From Candidatus Altiarchaeota archaeon (GTDB lineage: Archaea > Altiarchaeota > Altiarchaeia > IMC4 > QMZM01): a DNA stretch of 22,189 bases. The notes under the pieces were generated by a model that did no database searches, had not been told where the DNA came from, and saw nothing but the letters and a program-made list of their open reading frames with translations. Position numbers and translations under genes: made by a program. Below are positions 1,875 through 22,189 of this stretch, piece after piece; positions within the stretch are counted from its first letter, which is position 1; each line of letters starts with the position of its first letter. Location: the NCBI GenBank assembly GCA_030633595.1, contig DAOVSE010000012.1:1-22189 (forward strand), written 5' to 3'.

Positions 1875-2925
1875 AATTCTTATGTAACTTTTCGATAATG
1901 AGATAGGCTAATATAGCATAAATAAAGCCTATCAGGATATCTATGATATAGTGTTCTCCCAGATAAACAGAAGAAAGCCCAACACTCAATGGAAGAAGAA
2001 TCAGGGGCAGGGCTTTTCTACTCCACCTAACAGCAAAGAGAAATAGAATGGATGGATAGGCAGCATGCAGGGAGGGTATGGCCGCTACCGGGTTGGAGTT
2101 TACCAATATGTAGATGGAGGGTAAACCCTTGGGGATAAATGCATTCTCTTGATTAATTTCTGAAAGAATTCTATCTATTCCAGATATGTATCCCTTCTCT
2201 TGTGCCAACCAAGGAGGAGCCGAGGGAAAAAGCAAAAATGTAATCAAGGCTGCATAAGAAACCAGAATCATGCAATCTCTGAATTTTATAAATAAGTTCC
2301 TATCTTTCATCCATAAAAAAACGGCAAATAGTACAGCAGGTGTGAAGTGCAGAAAGTAAAGATTTACAGCTAGGACATCATAGCCATTAATTATTCCCGG
2401 GTGAAAAAAATTCTCCTGTAACCAACGAGTGGGAAGATGACCCAGAAATAGGGCTTTTTCAGCAGAGATTAATCCCTGGTAACAGACCGTGGAACCGAGA
2501 TCATCTGCTATTCCTCGCATAGCATCATAAGCAAATATCAATAGGGCAAATGGTGTCCAATCCGATAAAAATTTCCCCGTTTTTCTCACCAACAGAGTAA
2601 CAAAAATGCCCAAGAAGATCACCTGATCGAGGGTGATTCTCAGGTTATAGTATATTAGGATAAATGATAATGCCAACAAATAGGCTATAGCCCCCATTTT
2701 TGATACGGGATCAAAAGAGTCTTGATCTCCGAGGATTTTCTCAGTAATCTCTGTAATGGAAAGATCGATAACCCCGAAGTAGAAAAGAATTTGATAGAGA
2801 CTATATAAGAGTCCAGTAAATATAAAAAAGAGTCCAGCAGAATCTTTGATAATTACTCCGGTTATTATCAAAGCAAGAGCAATCGTAAAATCCATCAAAC
2901 TAATTTTTTTTTCCACACCTTTCAT
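1861..2925 (-). CDS. Integral membrane protein of the PAP2 superfamily (AUR1/inositolphosphotransferase-like lipid phosphatase/phosphotransferase)
   Basis: 354 aa, multiple TM helices. C-terminal motifs IPSLHAAYP and LGEHYIIDILIG match the PSxH and HxxxD signature of AUR1/PAP2-like enzymes. The ORF-track start at 2925 may be overcalled. An internal Met at 2895 (MDFTIALAL) fits a leaderless start better. Confidence 0.5.
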   Translation of the reverse strand: MKGVEKKISLMDFTIALALIITGVIIKDSAGLFFIFTGLLYSLYQILFYFGVIDLSITEITEKILGDQDSFDPVSKMGAIAYLLALSFILIYYNLRITLDQVIFLGIFVTLLVRKTGKFLSDWTPFALLIFAYDAMRGIADDLGSTVCYQGLISAEKALFLGHLPTRWLQENFFHPGIINGYDVLAVNLYFLHFTPAVLFAVFLWMKDRNLFIKFRDCMILVSYAALITFLLFPSAPPWLAQEKGYISGIDRILSEINQENAFIPKGLPSIYILVNSNPVAAIPSLHAAYPSILFLFAVRWSRKALPLILLPLSVGLSSVYLGEHYIIDILIGFIYAILAYLIIEKLHKNSTQS

Positions 2926-2928
2926 CTT

Positions 2929-2938
2929 AAGCTTAAAT
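2929..2938 (+). promoter_or_regulatory. Putative TATA box (gcttaaataa) in the divergent promoter region between the PAP2-like and GT-C genes
   Basis: AT-rich TATA-like element about 25 nt upstream of the internal ATG at 2961 of the GT-C gene. Oligo-A/T stretch at 2904-2916 could serve the opposite gene. Confidence 0.25.
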
Positions 2939-2939
2939 A

Positions 2940-4271
2940 ATGAGGCTGAGATTAATTAATATGGAAATTGGGAAAATCGCATATTTATACATTATCTTGG
3001 TTTCTTTGCTATCTATAATAATATTTCCCATCATCTCTACCAGCTTACTAGATCATGACGTCTTTTTTCATTTGCTGGTCTCTAAAGAGATGATCAAAGA
3101 GAAAACCCCTTTTCTTTTACACGAACCATGGACTACTACACTAGAAACTCTTAGTTATCCGCCCCTCTTTCATTGGGTCCTCGTGCTTTTCTCCCTCTTT
3201 GGTTTTCTTCCCATGGAAAATTTAGCCTTGTTTTTTCAAATTATTTTTTATCCCCTGGCCTTGTTAACCTTTTATCAACTGACCTCTTATATGGAAGACA
3301 GGAAAACCGGATTTATAGCTGTAATTATTCTCTCCCTCTATTTTCCTTTTTTTGCTAGAACACATCTTGCCATCCCTGAAGCTCTGCAGCACATCTTTAT
3401 TCCACTCGTCTTCCTATCGTATTTAAAGGGCAGGGAGAAGTTATGTGGATTGTTCTCTTTATTCCTTTTTCTGAATCACAACCTGGATGCATTTTTAATC
3501 CTATTGATTATTGGAATACACTGGCTATTTTATAAAAGAGGGAAATTTGCCATGTTAAATACCCTGTTAATTTCTTCTCCCGGAATAATTTTACAGTTAT
3601 ATTCCCATTTCTCTTTCACTGACCCTATTGAAAATATTTTTTCTAAGCTAGGAAACACCAGCTCCATAGATCTGAGCCTAGCTCTCCTCAGTAGTGGTAT
3701 TCTATTTCTTATAGGTGTGTGGGCTCTTTTAAAATATAGAAAAGGAATTAATCCGCTCCTTATTCTGTGGTTTTTAGGAACCTTAATAATTCTATTCTCT
3801 TACAGAGCTGCTCGTTTTCCCGCTTATCTGGGTCCTCCCGCCAGCATTATTATCGCCATGGCTCTTTTAAAAGAATTTAAAACTGAAGGGAGATTTTCTC
3901 TTGCTTTTCCAATCGTGGGATTAATCGCAATAAGTATTTATACTTCCGCGATCTTCTTTCCGTTCTGTTATGACTTTTATGGACCTGGGATAAATGAAGT
4001 AGAGGAATCATCCTATCAATGGATAAAAAGCAATCTTACAGGAAGATCCATCTTTTTTGTGGGGTCCCATGGTTATAAATTGGTTTATTTTACCGACCAG
4101 AAAGTGATAAGAGATGGGGGAGGGGGTGAATATTTATTCTCTAATCTCCCCCACTACTCTCCAGACGAAGGATGGAGATTAATAAGAGATTTCGGGGAAT
4201 ACAGAACTCGGAGGTGGGGGATATATCAAGTATGGGAAGACTATAAGTTATATGTCAGGGTAATAGAATAG
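2940..4271 (+). CDS. GT-C fold membrane glycosyltransferase (PMT_2/ArnT-like, GT39/83-type, dolichyl/polyprenyl-phosphate-sugar dependent)
   Basis: 443 aa with about 10 TM helices. First extracytoplasmic loop carries an acidic DxD-like motif (LLDHDVFF) followed by the conserved YPPLFHW (hPPL) motif typical of ArnT/PMT-like GT-C enzymes. C-terminal soluble region present. The true start is possibly the Met at 2961 (MEIGKIAY). Confidence 0.5.
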   Translation: MRLRLINMEIGKIAYLYIILVSLLSIIIFPIISTSLLDHDVFFHLLVSKEMIKEKTPFLLHEPWTTTLETLSYPPLFHWVLVLFSLFGFLPMENLALFFQIIFYPLALLTFYQLTSYMEDRKTGFIAVIILSLYFPFFARTHLAIPEALQHIFIPLVFLSYLKGREKLCGLFSLFLFLNHNLDAFLILLIIGIHWLFYKRGKFAMLNTLLISSPGIILQLYSHFSFTDPIENIFSKLGNTSSIDLSLALLSSGILFLIGVWALLKYRKGINPLLILWFLGTLIILFSYRAARFPAYLGPPASIIIAMALLKEFKTEGRFSLAFPIVGLIAISIYTSAIFFPFCYDFYGPGINEVEESSYQWIKSNLTGRSIFFVGSHGYKLVYFTDQKVIRDGGGGEYLFSNLPHYSPDEGWRLIRDFGEYRTRRWGIYQVWEDYKLYVRVIE

Positions 4272-4731: not shown

Positions 4732-5952
4732 ATGGCATTGATTCCGATCGAGGAGGAAGAGATTCCAGAAGAAGCCAAAAGGGGGATAGTTATAGAAGAA
4801 AAGAAAAGTGCAATTCCATACTGGCAGGCTGCAATTTTTATTCCGATCTTCATAGTTCTGCTGTCTTTATTGATACTATTTCCCGGAGCAACGATCCCGA
4901 TTTATGGGGAAATAAGCGTTAGAATTGGCACTCTGATTTTATTAGTTATACTCGTCTTAGCTGCTTTGATGCTACCGAAAGCCATTGTAAGACTCCTGGA
5001 GTACGAAAGAGCTGTTGTCTTTAGGCTCGGTAAGTTTAGTAGAGTTGCTGGTCCCGGTTGGGTGATCATATTTCCCATAATGGAAAACTATGTAGTAGTT
5101 AGTTTGAGATTGCAGGTTTATACCGTAGATCCCCAGGAGGTTGTAACAAGGGATAAGGTGAGGTTTCTAGTCTCACCAGAAATTTTTATGTATGTTTCAA
5201 ATCCAAAGGATGCGGTCATAAATGTACAGGACTATGAGGGTGCAGTTCTTCAATATATAAACTCTGCATTAACGCATATCTGTGGAAATTCCGCCTCGGA
5301 TTATATCATATCGCATATGGATGATGTAAGTCACAAACTGGAGGACTCGATACATCATATATCAAACCTGCCGGGAAAGGAGTGGGGCGTTACCATACCA
5401 CGGGTTAAATTAACTCTGGTTAGATTTCCGGATAAGGTACAGGATGCCATGCACGAGAAGGTTGCTTCTGAACAATTAAAGTTAGCAGCTCATGAGAAGG
5501 CAGAGGCAACGAAGATAGAGATAGATGCGATCCGGGAGGCCGGATCCAAGCTTACCGACCCCGCAATTACCTATATGTATTTGGAGGCATTAGATAAGGT
5601 CGCAAGGGGAAGGGCAACAAAGATAATATTGCCATTGGAAATTTCTAAGATTGCAGAGACAATAACGAGAAGGACGGGAGCTCCTGTTGATGAGATACCC
5701 CAGATTCAGATACCCTCTGGAGTGATTGAACAATATAAAGGGACTATTGATAACTATGAGAAGAGAATTAAAAGCATAGAAAGCAGGTTAGAGACAAGAG
5801 ATAAAGAGCAGAAAGGGTTAACAGAGAAGATAAAGGATTATGAAAAAGAAGTTGGAGCACCGTCTGAAAAGAAAATTTCTATGAAAGAGAAAGAAAAATA
5901 CAAAAAAAGGATTAGAGAGATTAAAAAAAGATTAGGTGTGAAAAGTAGATGA
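4732..5952 (+). CDS. SPFH/band-7 (stomatin/prohibitin-like) membrane scaffold protein with C-terminal coiled coil
   Basis: Two N-terminal TM segments, then the characteristic SPFH core (RAVVFRLGKFSRVAGPGWVIIFPIMENYVVVSLRLQVYTVDPQEVVTRDKV...). Long Lys/Glu-rich helical tail. Track start at 4729 is a TTG. The first ATG is at 4732. Confidence 0.8.
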   Translation: MALIPIEEEEIPEEAKRGIVIEEKKSAIPYWQAAIFIPIFIVLLSLLILFPGATIPIYGEISVRIGTLILLVILVLAALMLPKAIVRLLEYERAVVFRLGKFSRVAGPGWVIIFPIMENYVVVSLRLQVYTVDPQEVVTRDKVRFLVSPEIFMYVSNPKDAVINVQDYEGAVLQYINSALTHICGNSASDYIISHMDDVSHKLEDSIHHISNLPGKEWGVTIPRVKLTLVRFPDKVQDAMHEKVASEQLKLAAHEKAEATKIEIDAIREAGSKLTDPAITYMYLEALDKVARGRATKIILPLEISKIAETITRRTGAPVDEIPQIQIPSGVIEQYKGTIDNYEKRIKSIESRLETRDKEQKGLTEKIKDYEKEVGAPSEKKISMKEKEKYKKRIREIKKRLGVKSR

Positions 5953-6276: not shown

Positions 6277-8037
6277 ATGATGGATAGATTCCCTAGGTTT
6301 TTTAAAGAGGAAGAGGAATGGAAGAGCCTGGAGATAAAACCAAAGCAATTCGAAGATATAGTTTCAAGACTTCTATCTGAATTCAATCTGGATCTTCAGG
6401 AACTGGAAAAGATCGAAGAAGGGGATACTATAGCTATTGCTATAAATAAACTTGGGGAAGAAACAAAATCGCTGGTTAGGACGAGGTCCTATACAATTGG
6501 CCTGGAGATGGAGGATGTTGAGGACCTATATGAGGACATGTTAAGGAACAAAGCTATAAGCGCAATTTTCATAACGAGCTCGCATTTTACAAAGGAGGCA
6601 AAGGAGTTTGCAAAACACGTTCCCATCAAGCTGGTAGATGGGGTTGAACTGGGAAAACTTCTATCAGAATATGGGGTGCCAACGACAGAGTTGGCATTCC
6701 TCTCGGGATTTACTGACAAAAAGGTATTGGGATACTTCAAAAGGCAACGGGCAAAGAAGTTTCTCGGTCTGTTCGGTTCCAGAGAGACGATAGAGGAGAT
6801 AGATAGAATGTACATACCCATGGGTCAATTCTCCATGAAAAAGACAACAAGAGATCTGGAAACAAGTAGTTATTTATATGTGGATCTGACCAGTGGAAGT
6901 GTCTTTCATATGGAAGAAAACAGAATAGAGGAGGATGACTTCATCAAGAGGATACTTGACCTCCCGGAGGAATCGAGAGTACATTTGTTGGATCTGATAA
7001 AGCACGGGGAGCTGGAGCATGAGCACCTGAAAGGCAAAGCGTTGGATATACTGGAGAAGGAGAGATTGATCGGGATTCGGGGTAAGAATGAGGGTGGGGG
7101 TGTTTTGAATATACTTATGAATGAGATAACAAGCACCATGAATATTTTCATTGGGGGGCTCACCTCCATCAGCAGTAAAGAAACGAGCGCTAAAGAAAGG
7201 GAGATAACAACAACCAAATATGTTAGAGCGCGGATAGATAAACCAGTTATAGATGCATCCTTTGACATAGGGCATTTCATAGAATCCAGTACGGAGATCA
7301 ATCCGGAATTTGATCCAGACCCAGTAAACTACTCACCTGAAGATGTAGTTGATGTGTTGAAAAGGATATATAAAGGAAATGATGTATCCTTTGTGAAGAT
7401 GGCATACCTACCGTACTACAGATGCAAATATATAATAGATACAGGAAGAGAAAGATTCAAAAAGCTTTTTACCCCAAAATTCAAACAATTCGTTCCTAAG
7501 CCAACGGCATATACCTGGATCTATAGGACTATAGACAGATTTCCTGCAATTCCATATCTAATAATTGCTTTGGGATATTTGCTTTTAGATCTGGGTAAAT
7601 TGAAAAAAATCCATGTATTGTCATCTGCATTCATATTTCTCTCCATAGCCGTAATTATGGGGGTTTTACTCAAGGTAATCTTCAAGACTGAGAGAAAGAT
7701 TCCAAGATACGGTGGTACCATTGTAAAATACGGATTTCCCTCCATACATGCCCTGGCATCGATTGGGGCCATTGCTTTTGTCTACTTCGTGGACCCCATG
7801 TTCGCATTGCTTTTAGCCCCTCTGGGTTTGCTGTATATGTATTCGAGAATAAAACTCGGAGTACATAGTGAAAGGGACATTTTAGGTGGAGCAATAACGG
7901 GCTTGATAATAGGTATATTCTGCGGTATCTACATTCTTCTAGGAATTTATCTGGAACCCGATATAGAGACAGTATTAGGAGTTCTATTCTTCGTTGCTCT
8001 CTTAACGTTGACCACAATAGAGCTGAGAACGCGGTAA
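6277..8037 (+). CDS. Fusion protein: N-terminal Mrr-like restriction-endonuclease-fold domain (PD-(D/E)xK family), long cytoplasmic middle region, C-terminal PAP2 (type 2 phosphatidic acid phosphatase) membrane domain
   Basis: N-terminus FEDIVSRLLSEF...GDTIAIAINK...SLVRTRSY...AIFITSSHFTKEAKEFAK...IKLVDGVELGKLL follows the Mrr_cat pattern FEELVAELL...DGGID...VQCKRY...VTTSGFTKEA...LIDGEEL. C-terminal 5 TM helices carry the PAP2 motifs KTERKIPRY, FPSIHALAS (PSGH) and SRIKLGVHSERDILGGA (SRxxxxxHxxxD). Confidence 0.6.
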   Translation: MMDRFPRFFKEEEEWKSLEIKPKQFEDIVSRLLSEFNLDLQELEKIEEGDTIAIAINKLGEETKSLVRTRSYTIGLEMEDVEDLYEDMLRNKAISAIFITSSHFTKEAKEFAKHVPIKLVDGVELGKLLSEYGVPTTELAFLSGFTDKKVLGYFKRQRAKKFLGLFGSRETIEEIDRMYIPMGQFSMKKTTRDLETSSYLYVDLTSGSVFHMEENRIEEDDFIKRILDLPEESRVHLLDLIKHGELEHEHLKGKALDILEKERLIGIRGKNEGGGVLNILMNEITSTMNIFIGGLTSISSKETSAKEREITTTKYVRARIDKPVIDASFDIGHFIESSTEINPEFDPDPVNYSPEDVVDVLKRIYKGNDVSFVKMAYLPYYRCKYIIDTGRERFKKLFTPKFKQFVPKPTAYTWIYRTIDRFPAIPYLIIALGYLLLDLGKLKKIHVLSSAFIFLSIAVIMGVLLKVIFKTERKIPRYGGTIVKYGFPSIHALASIGAIAFVYFVDPMFALLLAPLGLLYMYSRIKLGVHSERDILGGAITGLIIGIFCGIYILLGIYLEPDIETVLGVLFFVALLTLTTIELRTR

Positions 8038-15118: not shown

Positions 15119-16399
15119 CTATAAGCTATAAATCTTAATATTTGAGCCCAGTTTTTTCATCACATCTACAAAATCGGGGAAGGATATGTCTATGGACTCC
15201 GCATTGTCTATTGTTGTCTCACCCTTTGCCCTTAACCCTGCCACTGCCAGAGCCATTACTATTCTGTGATCACTCCACCCATGAAGCCTTGTTCCCTTCA
15301 AGAAATCTATGCCCTCTATTTCCAGTTCGTCCTTTCTCTCTTTAATCCTTGCACCCATTTTTCTTAGCTCCGCAGATATCGCCTTTAATCTGTCGGATTC
15401 CTTATAACGAAGATGCCCAACATTCTTTATTAAGGTTTTACCCCTTGCAACAGAGCCAAGAACCGCCACTATCGGAACCAGATCCGGCATATCCGACATG
15501 TCCAGCTCAATTCCTTTTAGCATTCCATTCCCCAAGATTCTTATTTCATTTCTGTTAATCTTTAAATCGACGCCCATTTTCTTTAAGATACTAATGATTT
15601 CTCTATCCCCTTGTTTTGATTCCATGAATAAGTTTTTTACGGTAACATCAGACTCAAGTAAAGATGCTGCAGCAAGTATAAAAGCGCCTGAAGAATAATC
15701 CCCTTCTATCCCATAATCTTTGGCTTTATATTCTTGATCTCCACGAATGTAAAATTTGTTCTCATACAATTTGGCCGTTGCGCCGAATTCTTCCATCACA
15801 TCCAGGGTTAGATCGATGTAGGGCCTCGACTTTGGCTCCGTCGTTATAAGAATCTGTGTGTCCTCGGCCATGCACGGTGCCGCGATCAATAACCCTGATA
15901 TAAACTGAGAGCTTACATCTCCGGCAATCTTGCACGGGCCCCCACTTGATGGACCTTCAACCATTACCGGTGGTTTTCCATTCATGGAGCTGGTTCTCGC
16001 ACCCAGTTCTTCCAAGGCGTTAAGTATGGACTGCATAGGTCTATTTCGAATTGACTCATCACCCGTCAGGGTAACCTTTCCGTGGCACAAACCTGCAACC
16101 GCCGTCATAATTCTGATAGTGGTTCCGGAATTTTCAACATCTATTGTTTTCTCAGGTAAGGTCGGACTTCCTTTAACACCGTCAACAATAATTGTATCAC
16201 CTCTAACCTCAATATCCGCACCGACAGCCCTGCAGGCATTTACACTCGCCATGGTATCCGCAGATATTAAGGCATTATTTATGATGGATTTTCCATCGGC
16301 GAGAGACGCGATAATTATGGCCCTATGAGTGTAGCTTTTGCTCGGTGGTGCGGTTACTGTGCCCTGTAATTTTTCAGAATGTTTAATTGTTATGTTCAT
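15119..16399 (-). CDS. aroA: 3-phosphoshikimate 1-carboxyvinyltransferase (EPSP synthase)
   Basis: N-terminus KLQGTVTAPPSKSYTHRAIIIASLADG matches the EPSP synthase signature. 426 aa. Confidence 0.95.
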   Translation of the reverse strand: MNITIKHSEKLQGTVTAPPSKSYTHRAIIIASLADGKSIINNALISADTMASVNACRAVGADIEVRGDTIIVDGVKGSPTLPEKTIDVENSGTTIRIMTAVAGLCHGKVTLTGDESIRNRPMQSILNALEELGARTSSMNGKPPVMVEGPSSGGPCKIAGDVSSQFISGLLIAAPCMAEDTQILITTEPKSRPYIDLTLDVMEEFGATAKLYENKFYIRGDQEYKAKDYGIEGDYSSGAFILAAASLLESDVTVKNLFMESKQGDREIISILKKMGVDLKINRNEIRILGNGMLKGIELDMSDMPDLVPIVAVLGSVARGKTLIKNVGHLRYKESDRLKAISAELRKMGARIKERKDELEIEGIDFLKGTRLHGWSDHRIVMALAVAGLRAKGETTIDNAESIDISFPDFVDVMKKLGSNIKIYSL

Positions 16400-16425
16400 C
16401 TTCTGTTGTTGATTGCAAATTAGCT

Positions 16426-16444: not shown

Positions 16445-16490
16445 CTTTCTTTTTCGTCAACGTTTTTCCTTTATAAAGAAAAAGGTTGTG

Positions 16491-16556
16491 TGTGTAGCTT
16501 TTACTTGGTGGTGCTTTTACCGTTCCTTCCAAATTTCCCGTAGGTCGAATTTTCAG
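16491..16556 (-). repeat. Degenerate duplicate of the aroA 5' coding end (encodes GNLEGTVKAPPSKSYTHN versus aroA EKLQGTVTAPPSKSYTHR), about 100 bp upstream of the real aroA start
   Basis: About 75% nucleotide identity over about 50 nt to 16330-16380. Conserved PPSKSYTH codons retained in frame. Embedded in spurious ORF 16383..16724(-). Confidence 0.55.
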
Positions 16557-16573
16557 GATCGTTTTAAGGTAAA

Positions 16574-16583
16574 TATTTATATC
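16574..16583 (+). promoter_or_regulatory. Putative TATA box (atatttatat) for the PH/SHOCT gene
   Basis: About 28 nt upstream of the ATG at 16608, consistent with a leaderless transcript. Confidence 0.35.
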
Positions 16584-16607
16584 TATACTAAACAGTATAT
16601 TAATAAA

Positions 16608-17147
16608 ATGAGCATTAAAAGCTTTTTTCGCGGCAAGAAAATTGATGTGCCAGAGAAGGTCAAAAAAGAGCTCATCCCAGGGGAAAAGGTTCTCCATTCG
16701 GTCAGACAGGCAAGGATAGAACAACTGATCACACCCGACTCAATTATAGTAACCACTGAGCGAGTAATGATAAGGAGACCAAAGCTCTTTGGGTTTGCCG
16801 CCAGCAACAAGGATTTCAGGTACTCCGATATGGGGAACGTAACCGTTCACAGGGGCATACTTAACTCAACCGTCGAAGTAAAGATGAGATTCCTCTCCCA
16901 TGATCTGATATTGAGAGCAATACCCAACGAAGAAGCCCCCGGCATCTCCAGCACGATACATAAAGGCATAGACGGCAGGTTCGAGGGCATGGATGGAGAT
17001 GAGTCCAGAAAATATAGAATTCCCAGGATGGAAACTAAGAGAGAAAGTACTGATGTAGATCTACTGAAAATTCTCAAGCTGAGATACGTGAAGGGGGAGA
17101 TAACAAGAGAAGAATACGAGAGGATGAAGAGAGACATCACGAGATGA
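16608..17147 (+). CDS. Bacterial-type PH domain (bPH_2/YdbT-like) protein with C-terminal SHOCT domain
   Basis: Core EKVLHSVRQARIEQLITPDSIIVTTERVMIRRPKLFGF...VEVKMRF resembles DUF304/bPH_2. C-terminal LLKILKLRYVKGEITREEYERMKRDI is a SHOCT-like motif. The track start at 16488 reads through the aroA duplicate and is rejected. First plausible ATG is 16608. Confidence 0.65.
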   Translation: MSIKSFFRGKKIDVPEKVKKELIPGEKVLHSVRQARIEQLITPDSIIVTTERVMIRRPKLFGFAASNKDFRYSDMGNVTVHRGILNSTVEVKMRFLSHDLILRAIPNEEAPGISSTIHKGIDGRFEGMDGDESRKYRIPRMETKRESTDVDLLKILKLRYVKGEITREEYERMKRDITR

Positions 17148-17974: not shown

Positions 17975-19066
17975 TCACCCCTTCAAGATTCCATCAACGA
18001 CGTCCCTGGCTTTTTCCCTCCTCTCCTGATGCTTCCTGAGGAAATCGACCGTTACTTCCGCACATATTGCCTTGCACTCTCCGCATATTCTCTTTCCAGA
18101 GGTGCAATCCTCGTATATTTTTTTCAATTCCCGATCATCATCAATCAGGTGATAGAGGAAGAGATCATAGATCATGCACCCCTCCGGAATTCCGCCTTTC
18201 TTTCTCTGTTCGTTTACCGTAGCCCTGCCGCCCGTTTTCGAGTTCATTATCTTTTTTATCGCGTCCTTTGGATCATCTGTCAATGCGATATAAGACTTCG
18301 GATCAGAGGAGCTCATCTTCCCGCCCTGTAGACCACCCATGAATTTATGATATGTTGATGATGGTAGAATAAAGCGAAACTCTGTCTGGAATCTCGATGC
18401 AAGGTCCCTTGTTAATCTCAGATGTGGGTCCTGGTCCGCCCCTACGGGAACAACGGTTGGTCTCGGACCCCCGAATTCGTCCAATTGTGGATGCAGGATA
18501 TCGGCAGCCTGAGTTATTACCGAAAATATCTTTCTGGGAGCCATATCACCGTAAATTCCATTCAATTCATTGAAGGTTACCTTTCTCGATAACATGTCCC
18601 TCAGGCGATAATATGGAGTAACGTAGTCGGTTTGAAACCAGAATCTCAGATTCTTTTCCTTGAGCCCTAAAGCTACATAATTTGTCAGGTATTCCTCTAC
18701 GGCAATATTTCTCGACGTTTTGAGATCCATGCCCCTGACCAGATAAGCCTCGAGATCTGCACTGCATAGAAAGATCTCAGCTCCAAGCCCCTGGTAAAAG
18801 ATGATCTGATCCGCGACCATTTTGTGGCCGAAATGAAACTTCCCGGAGGGCATCAGACCGGTCATCATTACAAAGCTCTCTCTCTTCTGAATCGCATTCA
18901 TTATCTTATCGAAATCCCTGTGCCCGAAGATAATTCCCCTTCGAATATACCTGTTCTCAAAGAGGCTTTTTCTGAATTTTTCAAATGACTCAATACCAAA
19001 TTCATCAAAGAGGTTCTTGTAATTTTTTATATCCTCGATACCCCACGGATCTATTCTTGGGTTCAT
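17975..19066 (-). CDS. trpS: Tryptophanyl-tRNA synthetase, archaeal/eukaryotic type
   Basis: N-terminal IDPWGIED...IFGHRDFDKIM then TGLMPSGKFHFGHKMV (HIGH-type) and KMSSSDPKSYI (KMSKS) motifs. C-terminal Cys cluster (CGECKAICAEV). The track start at 19210 adds 48 low-complexity residues. The Met at 19066 (MNPRIDPWG) is preferred. Confidence 0.9.
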   Translation of the reverse strand: MNPRIDPWGIEDIKNYKNLFDEFGIESFEKFRKSLFENRYIRRGIIFGHRDFDKIMNAIQKRESFVMMTGLMPSGKFHFGHKMVADQIIFYQGLGAEIFLCSADLEAYLVRGMDLKTSRNIAVEEYLTNYVALGLKEKNLRFWFQTDYVTPYYRLRDMLSRKVTFNELNGIYGDMAPRKIFSVITQAADILHPQLDEFGGPRPTVVPVGADQDPHLRLTRDLASRFQTEFRFILPSSTYHKFMGGLQGGKMSSSDPKSYIALTDDPKDAIKKIMNSKTGGRATVNEQRKKGGIPEGCMIYDLFLYHLIDDDRELKKIYEDCTSGKRICGECKAICAEVTVDFLRKHQERREKARDVVDGILKG

Positions 19067-19111: not shown

Positions 19112-19939
19112 ATGCCTCATTCCATTAAACTGCAGGAAGGTGAGATAGAGAGACTGAAGGGCCTTATAAAGGAAAATAGATTGCAAAAGATCCCCGTAAA
19201 GAGCGAACATGAGCTCTTCAGGGTAGGTGGGATTATACTCTACAAATCCGGGAAGCTGGTTTATGATGAAAACCCGGAGACGGGAAAAATTATCGACGAG
19301 ATCCTAAAGACTGATCACAGTTATGACTACGTGCTCGGAACGGATGAAGCCGGGAAGGGGGAATGGTACGGTCCCCTTGTTGTGGAGTGTGTCGCTCTAA
19401 AGCCCCGGGAGATTGTTGAACTGAGAAAAATGGGGGTCATGGACAGCAAAAAACTAACGAAGAAAAGATTGCTAAAACTCGGGGGTGAATTACGCAGGCT
19501 AGAATTCACAAGAAAGCCCCTCATACTGATGCCGGAAACATACAACAGGAGCTACAGAAAATTTCAGGCAGAGGGGAAAACACTGAACGATTTAATGGCT
19601 TGGGCCCACGCTAGGGCGATAAAGGATCTTGTTGCCGAACTGGAATACGAAAACCTAAAGATCATAATAGACAAATTTGATGTCAAGAAGACCGAATTCA
19701 GACTTAGCGATCTGGATAAAACCGGGGTGAAGGTAATCCAGAAAATCAGGGGTGAGTCAGAGATTCCAGTTGCTACGGCGAGTATACTTGCAAAGTACAT
19801 CTTCGAGAAGCAGGTTGATGAGCTAAATAGGAGATTTAATATGGATCTGAGAAAATCAAGACCGGAGGATGTTCCGGGGGAGATACTTTCAATGGTTTCA
19901 AAGCTTCACTTCAAGAATGTTAGACGGGTCATTGAGTGA
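19112..19939 (+). CDS. rnhC: Type 2 RNase H of the RNase HIII kind (N-terminal TBP-like substrate-binding domain plus RNase HII/HIII catalytic domain)
   Basis: Catalytic motifs GTDEAGKGEWYGPLVV (DEAG), GVMDSKKLTKKRL (DSK) and VATASILAKY. The two-residue insertion KGEWYGP matches the HIII pattern KGDYFGP. The 75-aa N-terminal extension contains ILYKSGKLVY, resembling the RNase HIII N-domain motif (TxYKSGKxxFQG). Confidence 0.65.
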   Translation: MPHSIKLQEGEIERLKGLIKENRLQKIPVKSEHELFRVGGIILYKSGKLVYDENPETGKIIDEILKTDHSYDYVLGTDEAGKGEWYGPLVVECVALKPREIVELRKMGVMDSKKLTKKRLLKLGGELRRLEFTRKPLILMPETYNRSYRKFQAEGKTLNDLMAWAHARAIKDLVAELEYENLKIIIDKFDVKKTEFRLSDLDKTGVKVIQKIRGESEIPVATASILAKYIFEKQVDELNRRFNMDLRKSRPEDVPGEILSMVSKLHFKNVRRVIE

Positions 19940-19991
19940 TCACTTCCTGCTCGTCTTTTTCTCGTATCGCCCCCACATGGAGTTCCATTCC
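19938..19991. repeat. Direct repeat copy 1 (54 bp): a duplicate of the 3' end of the mazG-like gene, encoding ...EWNSMWGRYEKKTSRK* on the minus strand
   Basis: 50 of 54 nt identical to 20667..20720. First 31 nt identical (gatcacttcctgctcgtctttttctcgtatc). Abuts and overlaps the rnhC stop codon (tgatca). Confidence 0.85.
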
Positions 19992-20119
19992 TTGTTAGTG
20001 TTGAGTTCTAAAAGAAAAGGAGTTCACAAAAGGCAATTTTGTTGAAATAATTTCTAAGAAAAGGAGTTATAGCTATCTTCTTAGTTCTTCATATTTTTCT
20101 CTGCTAAGCTTTATTTGTT

Positions 20120-20299
20120 TTAGATTTCTCTCAGGAGACCCTTACTTAATTTCTCATTACCGTGCACAGGAACTACGGTTCTTCTGCCGTCTGAATGAAT
20201 GTATCTTACGTGACTGCCTTTTTTATGAACCCTTTGAAAGCCTAAGTTCTCAAGAAGTTTGCATAAATCCCTGCCAGAAACAGGCACAAGTTTGCTCAT
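20120..20299 (-). CDS. hicA: HicA-family toxin (mRNA interferase), 59 aa
   Basis: Unlisted ORF MSKLVPVSGRDLCKLLENLGFQRVHKKGSHVRYIHSDGRRTVVPVHGNEKLSKGLLREI with the HicA hallmarks (KGSHxxxxH, TVPxH, LxxGLLRxI). ATGA overlap with the upstream hicB stop. Confidence 0.8.
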   Translation of the reverse strand: MSKLVPVSGRDLCKLLENLGFQRVHKKGSHVRYIHSDGRRTVVPVHGNEKLSKGLLREI

Positions 20300-20520
20300 G
20301 CCATTACCTCAACTCGCTGCACTCCAACAAATTTCATTGGATGAATCTCTATCTTTTCTGCCTCCAGACATGCATCAATTGCCTCTTTGATTCTATCTAG
20401 AACCTGAGTTATGGTTTTTCCCTGAGTATAGCACCCCGGAATATCAGGCACTGTAGCCACATATATCCCACCCTCATCCTGTTCAATCAAAACCGTGAAA
20501 TTAAGTATTTTTTTCTCCAT
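20296..20520 (-). CDS. hicB: HicB-family antitoxin (UPF0150 RNase-H-fold partner of HicA), short form without DNA-binding domain
   Basis: MEKKILNFTVLIEQDEGGIYVATVPDIPGCYTQGKTITQVLDRIKEAIDACLE matches the HicB/UPF0150 pattern (YxVxIEqDEdGgYvaxvPdlPGCxTqGdT). The internal Met at 20520 is preferred over the track start at 20571. A TATA-like element lies at 20544-20554. Confidence 0.8.
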   Translation of the reverse strand: MEKKILNFTVLIEQDEGGIYVATVPDIPGCYTQGKTITQVLDRIKEAIDACLEAEKIEIHPMKFVGVQRVEVMA

Positions 20521-20543
20521 ACCGTAGGTCATATCAGATTCCA

Positions 20544-20554
20544 GATATAAATAT
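20544..20554 (-). promoter_or_regulatory. Putative TATA box for the hicB-hicA cassette (atatttatatc on the minus strand)
   Basis: About 29 nt upstream of the hicB ATG at 20520 on the minus strand, consistent with leaderless archaeal promoter geometry. Confidence 0.35.
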
Positions 20555-20666
20555 CCGTCGGCTGAAGCCAACGGTTTTCAGTTAATAAAGATCTTCCCCA
20601 AAGAGATTCCTCACTAAATCGGGTTTATCAATTTGTTAGACAAATAGTAATCGAAGCATTTAAATC

Positions 20667-20720
20667 GATCACTTCCTGCTCGTCTTTTTCTCGTATCTGT
20701 CCCACATGGAGTTCCACTCC
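20667..20720. repeat. Direct repeat copy 2 (54 bp): the authentic 3' end of the mazG-like gene
   Basis: See copy 1. Flanks the 675-bp hicBA segment on the other side. Confidence 0.85.
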
Positions 20721-20968
20721 CCTTTTAGATCTATGTCGAATTTGTTCGCCAGTTTTAGGGTCAGATATAAAAGATCCGTCAATTCCTCTGCAAGCTCCTT
20801 CTTATCGAATTTCTCTATCTTGTACCCATCAAAGCGCAGAATCCTTCTGGATATTTCTCCGAGTTCTTCACTCATATGCAAGGCTATATGCGAGGCTTTG
20901 TCCTTGTCCCAGCCGTATTTTTTATCATATTCTGAGACCTGCTTCTGGAGATCGGTTAAATTTGCCAT
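20669..20968 (-). CDS. MazG-like nucleoside triphosphate pyrophosphohydrolase domain protein (small all-alpha NTP-PPase)
   Basis: 99 aa. EExxE motif (HMSEELGEISRR) followed by an acidic ExxD helix (ELAEELTDLLY), typical of MazG/HisE-type NTP-PPases. Confidence 0.65.
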   Translation of the reverse strand: MANLTDLQKQVSEYDKKYGWDKDKASHIALHMSEELGEISRRILRFDGYKIEKFDKKELAEELTDLLYLTLKLANKFDIDLKGEWNSMWDRYEKKTSRK

Positions 20969-20987
20969 AATGATAATTAGTTAAGAC

Positions 20988-22189
20988 ATGAAAATAAAAC
21001 CACCGGAGCTGGAACACTCGGTAGGAATGGAGCTCTATAAGTCAGATACAGAGGGGATTGGCGGAAAAATTAAGCAAGTTCCGGAGGACTTTGTTGTTGA
21101 GGAGGTAACCCCCGATGAAAAGCCTTTGGAAGTTGACAAGGATATCGGATTTAATAAGGGAGAGCTGGGGGAATACCTGCATTTTACATTGCAGAAGTAC
21201 AACTGGGATACGATACGTGCATTAAAGGTTATCTCGAACAGATTGAATGTAAGCAGGAAGAGATTTGGCTTCGCCGGAACCAAGGATAAAAGGGCTTTGA
21301 CAACACAGAGGGTTTCTGTCTGGGATACGAAAGTTGAAGGGTTGCAGAAGATACGACTGAAGGACATAACCCTGAGGGATTTCAGCTATGCAGATGAAAG
21401 GATAAACCTAGGCGACCTCTGGGGTAACAGATTTATAGTAACTGTCAGAAAAATTGACCTATTAGAGAATTCAATAGACAAACGAATAAATTTAGTAATG
21501 GATGAGCTCGACTCCGGAATACCGAATTTCTTCGGCGTGCAGCGCTTCGGAACCGTGAGGCCGATAACGCATCAGGTTGGGGAGTGGATATTGAGGAGGG
21601 ACTTCAAGAGAGCCGTTATGGTTTATCTTTCGGCGGTCTATGAGAAAGAAAGCGAGGAAAGCAGGGAGGCCAGGAGAGTTCTATCAGAGACGGAGGATTT
21701 CAAAGAGGCCCTGAAGAGATTTCCAAAGCACCTTGGATATGAGAGCTCTATGCTGAATCATCTGGCTAAAAATCCGACGGATTATATCGGTGCATTGAGA
21801 GAATTACCCAAGAAATTGAGGTGGATGTTCGTCCACGCCTATCAGGCTTATATTTTTAATAAGACATTGAGTGAGTACATGCGAAAAGAAATCGAAGTGG
21901 AAAAGCTCCCCCTTGCAGGTTCAGAAATTGAGTTGGATGAGATCACAGCGAGGATTCTCAAGGAAAAAGAAATTTCCCAGAAGAACTTCAAAATAGAGGA
22001 GATGCCGGAATTAAGCTCCAAGGGGATGTATAGGGACTGCTTTATGTATATAAAAGGCTTCGAGGTTGTAAGTACAGGTAAGGACGAATTAAACGAGGGA
22101 AAGAGAAAAGCAGCCATCAGATTCTCTCTTTTAAAAGGGAGCTATGCGACCACAGTTCTGCGTGAAATAATGAAAAACGAGTACTGGTA
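20988..22189 (+). CDS. truD: tRNA pseudouridine(13) synthase TruD/Pus7 family, 3'-partial (runs off the window end)
   Basis: Long plus-strand ORF missing from the ORF track because it has no stop in the window. Motifs EGIGGKIKQVPEDFVVEEV, FGFAGTKDKRALTTQRV (catalytic GxKD), PNFFGVQRFG and KGSYATTVLRE are TruD hallmarks. Alternative start at 21027. Confidence 0.9.
   Translation, partial: MKIKPPELEHSVGMELYKSDTEGIGGKIKQVPEDFVVEEVTPDEKPLEVDKDIGFNKGELGEYLHFTLQKYNWDTIRALKVISNRLNVSRKRFGFAGTKDKRALTTQRVSVWDTKVEGLQKIRLKDITLRDFSYADERINLGDLWGNRFIVTVRKIDLLENSIDKRINLVMDELDSGIPNFFGVQRFGTVRPITHQVGEWILRRDFKRAVMVYLSAVYEKESEESREARRVLSETEDFKEALKRFPKHLGYESSMLNHLAKNPTDYIGALRELPKKLRWMFVHAYQAYIFNKTLSEYMRKEIEVEKLPLAGSEIELDEITARILKEKEISQKNFKIEEMPELSSKGMYRDCFMYIKGFEVVSTGKDELNEGKRKAAIRFSLLKGSYATTVLREIMKNEYW

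Follow-up and report, generated by a model that had tools for sequence, protein, structure and literature searches.

The window analyzed here, a 22,189-bp stretch of DNA from an uncultivated Altiarchaeales archaeon, carries a hicBA toxin-antitoxin pair flanked on both sides by a direct repeat of the 3′ end of a MazG-like gene (mazG). A repeat search of the window recovered both copies of the 54-nt repeat given in the preliminary description of this DNA, at 19938-19991 and 20667-20720, with 50 of 54 positions identical (four mismatches); these are the only two copies in the 22,189 bp, where 0 are expected from 100 dinucleotide-preserving shuffles of the window. Copy 2 is the real mazG 3′ end, since it closes a 99-aa open reading frame (ORF; 20669-20968, minus strand) that matches the PRA-PH and MazG Pfam families, while copy 1, read on the minus strand, ends in ...NKEWNSMWGRYEKKTSRK*, with stop codons just upstream and no ORF upstream of it, which bears out its earlier description as a partial duplicate. 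The features of the locus are the following.

17975-19066, minus strand: tryptophanyl-tRNA synthetase (TrpRS), from the ORF list and Pfam.
19112-19939, plus strand: RNase HIII-like gene (rnhC-like; rnh or RNH below), from Pfam RNase_HII at 90.8 bits; syntenic in relatives.
19938-19991, minus strand: right repeat copy (attR-like), a pseudo 3′ end of mazG encoding EWNSMWGRYEKKTSRK*.
19996-20119, minus strand: non-coding right arm of the hicBA cassette, from alignment with the L031, L030 and L059 cassettes.
20120-20299, minus strand: hicA toxin gene, 59 aa, truncated, from Pfam HicA_toxin and DNA alignment.
20296-20520, minus strand: hicB antitoxin gene, 74 aa from the likely ATG at 20520, from Pfam HicB_lk_antitox.
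20545-20581, minus strand: left arm of the hicBA cassette; hicBA homology begins at 20581.
20582-20666, minus strand: remnant of a UPF0175/DUF3368-PIN cassette, from comparison with L003.
20667-20720, minus strand: left repeat copy (attL-like), the functional mazG 3′ end plus 2 nt past the stop.
20669-20968, minus strand: MazG/PRA-PH-like all-alpha nucleoside triphosphate pyrophosphatase gene, 99 aa, from Pfam PRA-PH/MazG matches; the target gene.
From 20988, plus strand: TruD, from the ORF list and Pfam.

The two copies do not differ over the first 31 nt of the repeat, and all four mismatches in the window fall outside the longest identical block (31 nt); two of them are synonymous and two lie within one codon (D→G), where Gly is also present in a natural MazG-like homolog (P0003). 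Judged against the alleles of related loci and contigs, which are labeled L001 to L068, the true extent of copy 1 is ~57 to 59 nt (19937-19995). The repeat-bracketed structure is the same in an independent assembly, L001, which is 99.9% identical (6 mismatches in 5974 nt). A perfect 55-nt "repeat" in L001 (8572-8781) flanks a run of N at the point where the window contig ends exactly (22189), and was rejected as a scaffolding artifact around that run.

The hicB and hicA genes are securely predicted, by their domains and by their overlapping two-gene operon, to form a type II toxin-antitoxin module: HicA matches PF07927 with 67.9 bits and HicB, a short form, matches PF15919 with 40 bits (Pfam cut-off for both, 27 bits), and at 20296-20299 the end of hicB, with its stop, overlaps the start of hicA. 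The window HicB showed no DNA-binding domain. The mechanical hicB ORF starts at a TTG (20571); the ATG at 20520 is preferred, as homologs are 74 aa long and the upstream ATG is not kept in L031 or L030. The module's own TATA box, noted previously, is found as a TATA-like box, ATATTTATAT, at 20545-20554, ~24 nt upstream of the hicB ATG. Directly upstream of this box lies an 8-bp hairpin, CCGTTGGC-TTCA-GCCGACGG (20555-20574), loosely conserved in L030, L031, and L032, which could be an operator or a terminator. A 1-nt deletion that sets hicA apart from that of all other hicBA cassettes (near 20124/20125; present in L001 too) leaves 59 aa, vs. 75 to 77 aa in orthologous cassettes, and the HicA match covers 52 of 58 model positions (1-52), vs. 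all 58 (1-58) in L031. This truncation makes the activity of the window toxin doubtful, and its HicA is probably attenuated or dead; the frameshift marks the window module as decaying. Alignment of hicA and the right arm between the window and the L031, L030, and L059 cassettes also reveals a 45-nt insertion or partial duplication 3′ of hicA at 20021-20065, in which a AACTCCTTTTCTT..TAGAA motif is repeated, absent from those three cassettes.

The 675-bp insert contains no ORF besides hicBA, and the preliminary description held that it carries hicBA only; this is wrong, because 20582-20666 is the remnant of another toxin-antitoxin cassette. Homology to the hicBA cassettes of L030, L031, and L032 spans from 20581 to the right copy, and the 81 to 85 nt between the mazG stop and 20581 are foreign to the hicBA cassette. 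Within them, 20636-20666 matches the promoter and left end of a PIN cassette in L003 (= L029), a Guaymas metagenome-assembled genome (MAG) that is the nearest relative in the genome collection, and 20585-20634 is identical at 47 of 50 positions to L003 4671-4720, inside the PIN gene, with which it is in frame (QIDKPDLVRNLFGEDLY vs. PIN residues 14-30, KIDKLDLVRNFFGEDLY). Between these two kept pieces ~337 bp are deleted, and everything from mid-PIN through the mazG-end copy of that cassette is gone too, indicating that a PIN cassette once entered between mazG and hicBA and later lost most of its sequence. The ~33 nt that the window and L003 share 3′ of the mazG stop were considered as a conserved cassette end or recombination arm, a reading that was rejected: they are the PIN cassette promoter and left end, followed by the PIN gene fragment, and are homologous by descent from the decayed cassette. 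Of the minimal hicBA cassette described previously, the hicB-hicA pair therefore stands and the single minimal unit does not, as the insert is composite, hicA is truncated, and the 45-nt insertion is present.

Across Altiarchaeota, the target gene is conserved. The MazG-like protein has 79 close homologs, all named ones from Candidatus Altiarchaeota or Altiarchaeales MAGs, with a conserved C-terminus (...W.RYEKKTSRK), and the synteny TruD(-) mazG(+) ... RNH(-) TrpRS(+) is common to many lineages. In relatives, empty sites, in which rnh converges directly on mazG with one copy and no hicBA, occur in L023/L024 (mazG 86% identical), L005, L008, L018, and L037, so that the search for hicBA-less, single-copy alleles advised earlier was successful. 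The L023 stops abut (...AGGAAATAG|CTATCC), with TAGCTA at the junction, and the L008 junction reads TGATTA. Because the stops abut or nearly so at empty sites, the tgatca at copy 1, where the rnhC-like stop TGA (19937-19939) adjoins the pseudo-stop of the right copy, is the ancestral mazG/rnh junction; the insertion preserved it and did not, as had been proposed, place the two stops back-to-back. The rnhC-like gene is the original convergent neighbor of mazG. The repeat itself is seen only as partial mazG 3′-end copies, which disposes of the concern that it might be a widespread, dispersed intergenic family unrelated to mazG.

The arrangements found between mazG and rnh are listed here in order from mazG.

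Empty: L023/L024, L005, L008, L018, L037.
90-aa cassette: L027 (decayed copy beside rnh); L025, L026, L068 (no recognizable copy).
PIN, 90-aa: L003 = L029, L063.
hicBA, PIN, 90-aa: L030, L058.
hicBA, 90-aa: L059; probably L032 and L060 (contigs end before the 90-aa cassette).
hicBA: L031.
PIN remnant, hicBA: window, L001.

The mazG gene end is an insertion hotspot for three unrelated cassette types, hicBA, UPF0175/DUF3368-PIN, and a 90-aa/54-aa pair, which stand singly or in tandem arrays of two to three (L003, L030, L058, L059, and L063). The units measure 0.55 to 0.85 kb (hicBA, ~0.6 kb), and past every cassette lies a partial mazG 3′ end, which terminates at the stop codon. In L003, mazG is followed by genes for a UPF0175 antitoxin and for a PIN-like protein of 152 aa (precomputed annotation: PF11848 DUF3368), an exact 31- to 33-nt mazG-end copy, the 90-aa and 54-aa ORFs on the opposite strand, and a decayed copy (19/24) that adjoins the rnh stop. 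L027 is L003 minus the PIN cassette, and the sequence past the L027 mazG stop is that past the second copy of L003. The mazG-end copies differ in length with the type of cassette, ~54 to 57 nt for hicBA (starting (AA)GGAATGG), 31 to 33 nt for PIN (starting GAGATAC), and ~23 nt for the 90-aa type; they are nested, and the terminal ~23 nt, GAGAAGAAGACGAGCAGGAAGTGA, are common to all. The older, decayed copy sits nearest rnh, and the 90-aa cassette is the oldest at the site. Its 90-aa and 54-aa hydrophobic proteins (L003 5144-5537; L025 1930-2450; L027 6350-6706) have no match in Pfam, NCBIfam, or PDB, and the order of their genes is swapped between the L025/L068 and L027/L003 lineages. The hicBA boundaries are the same in every lineage, and the structure recurs in at least six other contigs from different samples and lineages. 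Among the loci compared, arrays of mazG-end copies are confined to the subclade of the window; the distant Altiarchaeota L004, L006, L009, L010, L015, L017, L028, L033, L034, and L043-L053 have no such copies and other genes 3′ of mazG.

Sequence identities separate the history of the cassette from that of its surroundings. Between the window and L030, L031, and L032, hicBA DNA is 92 to 96% identical, vs. 75 to 76% for TruD, 77% for RNH, and 81 to 84% for both the mazG body and TrpRS; between L030 and L032 the values are 99% for hicBA and 93% for TruD. With hicBA at 92 to 99% and flanks at 73 to 93% (for TruD and RNH, 73 to 77% in the window vs. L030, L031, and L032), it follows that the 0.6-kb unit crosses lineages without its flanks. 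Close relatives differ by single cassettes: L032, with hicBA, and L027, without it, share 99.45% identity across the 5310 nt that end at the mazG stop (29 mismatches, 3 of them within the last 40 nt of mazG), L058, with PIN, and L059, without it, are 99.7% identical, and further such pairs are L030 (with hicBA) and L003, and L003 (with PIN) and L027. The empty alleles, together with 99.5%-identical strains that differ by the cassette, speak against the possibility, raised in the preliminary description, that the duplicated arrangement is ancestral with no hicBA-less allele. The cassette order is hicBA-PIN-90-aa in L030 and L058 and PIN remnant-hicBA in the window, and deletion from one ancestral array cannot yield both; L031 is without the 90-aa cassette carried by its sister lineages and by a more distant lineage. 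The mazG end of L027 (6271-6309) has two private changes, M→V and K→E, among three clustered mismatches to L032, and one possibility is that it was inherited from a decayed right copy after excision.

Outside the clade, the nearest hicB relatives (74 to 82% identical) are in DPANN archaea, and the DPANN hicBA locus L062 has no flanking repeats; the footprint is thus not general to this hicBA family. The UPF0175-DUF3368 module also exists outside the mazG site: L067 (100-150) has one in an unrelated context, with a PIN toxin 88% identical to that of L003 and the same 35-nt promoter/left end, preceded by AGAAAGTGA (a 9/11 match to the mazG core end) and with no mazG-end copy downstream.

Comparison of left and right copies indicates where the repeat comes from. 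In L031, the copy abutting rnh keeps the ancestral ...GGAAATAA (...CAGGAAATAA|ttatcc), and mazG now ends in ...GGAAGTGA (...CAGGAAGTGA|tcgatt), with cassette DNA behind it, so that the left copy ends in a cassette-borne GTGA in place of the ancestral ATAA; the new gene end is thus contributed by the cassette. Right copies of the window, L031, and L030 agree at each of their first 19 nt, a stretch in which hicBA-less host alleles vary; the window right copy (GGAATGG...GGGCGA) differs from the host left copy but resembles right copies elsewhere in its first 19 nt. Left and right copies differ at 0 to 1 positions in L030, L058, and L059, at 0 of 47 in L031, and at 4 of 54 in the window, and right copies differ by 4 to 5 nt between lineages; copies that are near-identical within a genome yet lineage-specific indicate that homology-driven conversion acts on them. 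Both L031 copies (5286-5309 and 5891-5914) carry a rare TACAAG, which changes Glu to Lys at a position at least 90% conserved in the family, suggesting that the working gene and its pseudo-copy have undergone gene conversion. For the crossover point, L031 places it upstream of the last 4 nt, and polymorphisms in the other pairs (L032/L027, L030/L003, L058/L059) are uninformative or ambiguous at this sampling.

Based on these comparisons, hicBA is very probably a discrete 0.6-kb mobile cassette that has no recombinase gene, inserted in the last 50-odd nt of the MazG-like gene, and carries its own mimic of the mazG 3′ end. Because of this mimic, insertion does not disrupt mazG, which ends in the left copy, and leaves the right copy beside rnh as a pseudo 3′ end. 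The attL/attR-like, targeted insertion of a bare toxin-antitoxin cargo into the mazG-like 3′ end that was first suggested is supported by the empty sites and by the confinement of the repeats to mazG ends. The cassettes would leave as circles by recombination between flanking copies and reenter by a single (Campbell-type) crossover in the shared 23- to 31-nt core, GA(T)ACGAGAARAAGACGAGCAGGAAGTGA; in a circle or tandem junction, a single repeat copy would then join the right end of the cassette to its left end (...CCTAACAAAGGAATGG...GGAAGTGATCGATTCTGAAAACC...). The recombinase of such a reaction could be site-specific and supplied in trans, by a helper element or by the host, and the att core of a putative helper, or of further copies, would be GAGAARAAGACGAGCAGGAAGTGA.

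Window ORFs of at least 90 aa include no member of an integrase or resolvase family, and neither do the called genes within the 5- to 10-kb flanks of annotated relatives or, as had been stated for the cargo, the insert. Scans of viral contigs with two att-core patterns, hicB, and the PIN toxin gave no match, as did blastn of the whole cassette against phage and plasmid collections; the PIN-cassette left-end pattern had one hit, in L022, which falls within an unrelated gene of a phage and was set aside as chance. There is no tRNA gene in the window, so this is not a tRNA att site, and an Rfam search of 19800-21000 returned no family (its sole match, a small nucleolar RNA at 19.3 bits vs. a threshold of 40, was dismissed). 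A dif-type site comprises 28 nt, two 11-nt inverted arms and a 6-nt spacer (PMC8371274); the best 11-nt arms here match at 7 to 8 of 11 positions, like shuffles (mean 6.9, maximum 9), in a test that is insensitive to short imperfect core sites. Attachment-site features of integrons are likewise lacking: attC-like single-strand folding of the boundaries gives z values of -0.1 to -0.7 vs. shuffles, and no intI was found in the window or nearby. The cassette ends have no terminal inverted repeats, and the duplication is not of constant length but varies with cassette type (~57, 33, and 23 nt).

For the crossover, we tentatively favor a trans-acting site-specific recombinase, which would make the cassettes an archaeal counterpart of the bacterial cis-mobilizable elements (CIMEs). 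Recombinase-less tandem arrays at gene 3′ ends are a known outcome of integrase-mediated accretion (PMC7563491), and it is this precedent of integrase-made arrays (CIMEs, and also the tycheposons discussed below), the nesting of the copies on one terminal core, and the need for a vehicle that point in this direction; a helper element would provide that vehicle for the spread of a precise 0.6-kb unit between lineages. The same circle-out and single-crossover-in events may instead be the work of host homologous recombination on 30 to 57 nt of mazG-end homology, with no site-specific enzyme, an explanation that we consider a serious rival, if a somewhat less probable one. Mimic cassettes would then arise when a fragment with a toxin-antitoxin pair beside mazG circularizes, and since only circles carrying a gene end would give viable integrants, a bias toward gene ends would result. 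In bacteria, homologous recombination is the presumed means by which toxin-antitoxin islets that have no mobility genes spread (PMC13617665). Several observations weigh against a trans-acting recombinase or toward the host machinery: no helper element or recombinase was found at the site in ~15 subclade loci, in the window, or in viral, phage, and plasmid collections (whole genomes were outside the reach of this search); dyad symmetry in the shared core is no greater than in shuffled controls, and no arm motif is common to the three cassette types; mazG homology in the hicBA and PIN copies reaches farther upstream than any common core, a surplus that a site-specific reaction does not need; homology lengths vary, being 23, 33, and 57 nt at mazG and, in L010, 111 nt at TruD; within a genome the left and right copies are homogenized, and they are lineage-specific; duplicated gene ends, again without recombinases, occur at other genes (TruD 5′ end, L010; aroA 5′ end, window), a hint that the process is general and homology-based; L058 and L059 differ in a way that fits a deletion between copies that are not adjacent; the window mismatches all lie outside the 31-nt identical block, the expected place of crossover; and the cassettes are known here solely in integrated form. 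On the other hand, homologous recombination does not readily explain why flanks are not co-transferred. Integration across lineages would rest on ~31 nt of perfect identity, which is inefficient, and a 0.6-kb circle that does not replicate would have no vehicle by which to pass between lineages; moreover, homologous recombination would have very little to work on in the 23-nt copy of the 90-aa cassette, and three independent cassettes start 0 to 2 nt past the mazG stop (although selection could enforce this through the abutting rnh stop).

The remaining explanations fare less well. The preliminary description had left open whether the insert is a decayed relic or a cassette mobilized in trans, and mobilization in trans fits better than an immobile relic. 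Such a relic, a larger ancestral element that lost its integrase and all but the toxin-antitoxin pair and was then shaped by vertical descent and differential loss, would be in line with the commonness of integrase-less integrated archaeal elements (PMC8371274), with the decay of the window copy (hicA frameshift, PIN remnant), and with those presence/absence patterns that repeat-mediated loss explains; it is nonetheless improbable, and was already disfavored, given hicBA at 92 to 99% identity where host genes are at 73 to 93%, the inverted cassette order between the window and L030/L058, the lack in L031 of the 90-aa cassette that sister and more distant lineages carry, and near-identical strains that differ by a cassette. 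A transposase or casposase-like enzyme acting in trans, with the repeats as a long, host-derived target-site duplication, could account for the identical or nearly identical, host-like copies of L030, L031, and L059 and for new cassettes adjoining mazG, which resembles polar insertion. We regard it as very unlikely and largely refuted by a duplication length that differs by cassette (57, 33, and 23 nt) and by the cassette-borne stop of L031 (GTGA vs. the ancestral ATAA); the window right copy unlike its host counterpart and the lack of terminal inverted repeats and of any transposase found add to this. An integron-type array, built by attC × attI recombination through an IntI-like integrase, is suggested by the small, promoter-bearing cassettes rich in toxin-antitoxin genes, and archaeal integrons and integrase-less attC clusters exist, with toxin-antitoxin genes as their commonest annotated cargo (PMC9668308). 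However, the boundaries are direct copies of a coding 3′ end and not imperfect palindromes, they fold no better than shuffles, one cassette is in the opposite orientation, intI is not nearby, and Altiarchaeota enter the archaeal integron survey only as a tree-rooting outgroup (PMC9668308), which makes this explanation more remote still. Least credible of all is an assembly artifact or a local tandem duplication without mobility: metagenome assemblies can misjoin at repeats, as the 55-nt "repeat" of L001 illustrates, but the structure is the same in L001 and, with the same boundaries, in at least six contigs of other samples and lineages, the copies differ at four positions, and the cargo has no paralog in the window.

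Footprints at other genes were also observed. In L010 (JAYEGX010000078), from a distant member of the Altiarchaeota, TruD and mazG are separated by a UPF0175-like and PIN-like pair (2539-3371, minus strand), on either side of which stands a 111-nt direct repeat of the TruD 5′ end (2357-2467 and 3843-3953; 84% identical, including an exact block of 43 nt); the pseudo-copy by the promoter is host-like, the working TruD has a foreign-type N-terminus, and L012 and L014 are empty there. The window also has, 163 nt upstream of the real start of aroA (5-enolpyruvylshikimate-3-phosphate synthase), a pseudo-copy of the 5′ end of that gene, 77 nt long and 70% identical (16489-16565 vs. 16326-16402), which encodes ...LKIRPTGNLEGTVKAPPSKSYTH, has a TATA-like box upstream, and falls inside a mechanical GTG-start ORF (16488-17147); the two copies are ~86 nt apart with no cargo, and the pseudo-copy may be the scar of another gene-end insertion. 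L028, an Altiarchaeales contig, contains 49-nt direct repeats (98% identical; 10057-10105/11328-11376) around three small ORFs, including SHOCT and DUF7343, and 29-nt repeats (97% identical; 7072-7100/8076-8104) around a 240-aa ORF. In L065 (JAIYHW010000018), a toxin-antitoxin-rich island of another archaeal MAG, a 79-aa and PIN pair stands between 34-nt direct repeats (3805-3838/4590-4622) that begin at the last codon and stop of the upstream ORF (GAATAAATCCCC...), followed by a UPF0175-DUF3368 pair whose PIN is 74% identical to that of L003. L064, of another lineage, carries a ThaI-like restriction endonuclease and an N6/N4 methyltransferase between TruD and mazG (2107-3673), which makes the TruD-mazG-rnh neighborhood a general insertion hotspot.

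Elsewhere at the locus, the rnhC-like gene scores 123.9 bits against the NCBIfam model for rnhC (TIGR00716), under the cut-off of 161.2, and this is still its best match. Farther off in the window, a 586-aa ORF (6277-8037) joins an N-terminal Mrr-type restriction endonuclease to a C-terminal PAP2 phosphatase-like domain, an unusual fusion.

Toxin-antitoxin loci are among the most mobile prokaryotic genes and usually sit in tiny islets without a mobility gene, and their route of movement is debated. The locus described here offers a natural series in an uncultivated archaeal phylum, comprising empty sites, single cassettes, two- and three-cassette arrays, a decaying array, and near-isogenic strains that differ by one cassette, with junctions resolved to the base pair; the series is clean enough to make the choice between a trans-acting recombinase and a gene-end mimic used by host recombination testable. 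Were the latter true, it would represent a new and very simple route of gene capture. A broader proposal, which we regard as doubtful, is that the Altiarchaeales possess a cassette-capture system, not described before, of sub-kb toxin-antitoxin and other cassettes with gene-end mimics (mazG 3′, TruD 5′, perhaps aroA 5′), polar arrays, and no recombinase that is dedicated or encoded by the cassette; it would be integron-like in function, based on gene-end homology and host recombination, and would answer in general how toxin-antitoxin loci move without mobility genes. Such loci also pose a risk for annotation, which can easily mistake the pseudo 3′ ends and toxin fragments for small ORFs or intergenic spacer.

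The literature searched contains no description of such cassettes in Altiarchaeota; however, the arrangement has close parallels in other systems. The locus has the direct repeats duplicating a gene end and the empty single-copy site in relatives that characterize integrated elements, and it shares with CIMEs att sites kept without recombination or transfer genes and tandem accretion at a target gene; as no helper is known, its membership in that class is incomplete. Streptococcal CIMEs and microCIMEs at the fda, rpmG, rpsI, and rplL 3′ ends (PMC7563491) also lack recombination genes, have att-type direct repeats that duplicate the gene 3′ end, form tandem arrays of two or three, leave the target gene intact, and carry accessory cargo. 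Those bacterial elements are deletion derivatives of integrative and conjugative or integrative and mobilizable elements, usually beside an integrase-bearing helper (PMC7563491), whereas none of the loci here showed a helper, an integrase, or a conjugation gene, the host is archaeal, the units are 0.55 to 0.85 kb and consist of essentially one toxin-antitoxin operon, and the copies are nested (57/33/23 nt). The tycheposon islands of Prochlorococcus (bioRxiv 10.1101/2020.12.28.424599) share recurrent gene-end integration, older elements pushed inward, partial target copies, and degenerate elements, but target tRNA genes, encode their own tyrosine or serine recombinase when active, often carry replication genes, and measure 10 to 20 kb. 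Among archaeal elements with att sites in protein-coding genes (PMC8371274), tandem integration and integrase-less cases are also found; those described are proviruses and plasmids of several to tens of kb, none of them a sub-kb toxin-antitoxin cassette and none from Altiarchaeota.

Other likenesses concern small modules. The chromosomal toxin-antitoxin islets of Photorhabdus, and a toxin-antitoxin module there bracketed by duplicated Tn3 res sites (PMC13617665), similarly lack mobility genes, have empty single-site relatives, and show toxin decay; they are, however, bacterial, use a transposon resolution site, and are proposed to spread via homologous flanks, which are not co-transferred here. 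The pdif/dif modules of Acinetobacter plasmids and Xer-exploiting elements (PMC6449649, PMC5357621) share small modules that are frequently toxin-antitoxin pairs, the lack of a recombinase gene, and short-site boundaries used by a host enzyme, yet pdif modules have 11-6-11 inverted repeats in alternating orientation, while the mazG core lacks such a dyad and all copies are direct. Integron arrays (PMC9668308) share small, often single-operon cassettes, toxin-antitoxin cargo, mobilization in trans, and insertion at one end of the array; their cassettes are bounded by attC palindromes, with attI beside intI, as opposed to the direct coding-3′-end copies without hairpin potential, and without intI, of the mazG site. 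The best reading is that of a cis-mobilizable cassette that would recombine through its MazG-end mimic, at a site that works like a tandem-accretion hotspot, lacks those defining features of integrons, dif modules, and transposons that were tested, and resembles the integron and pdif systems in its logic.

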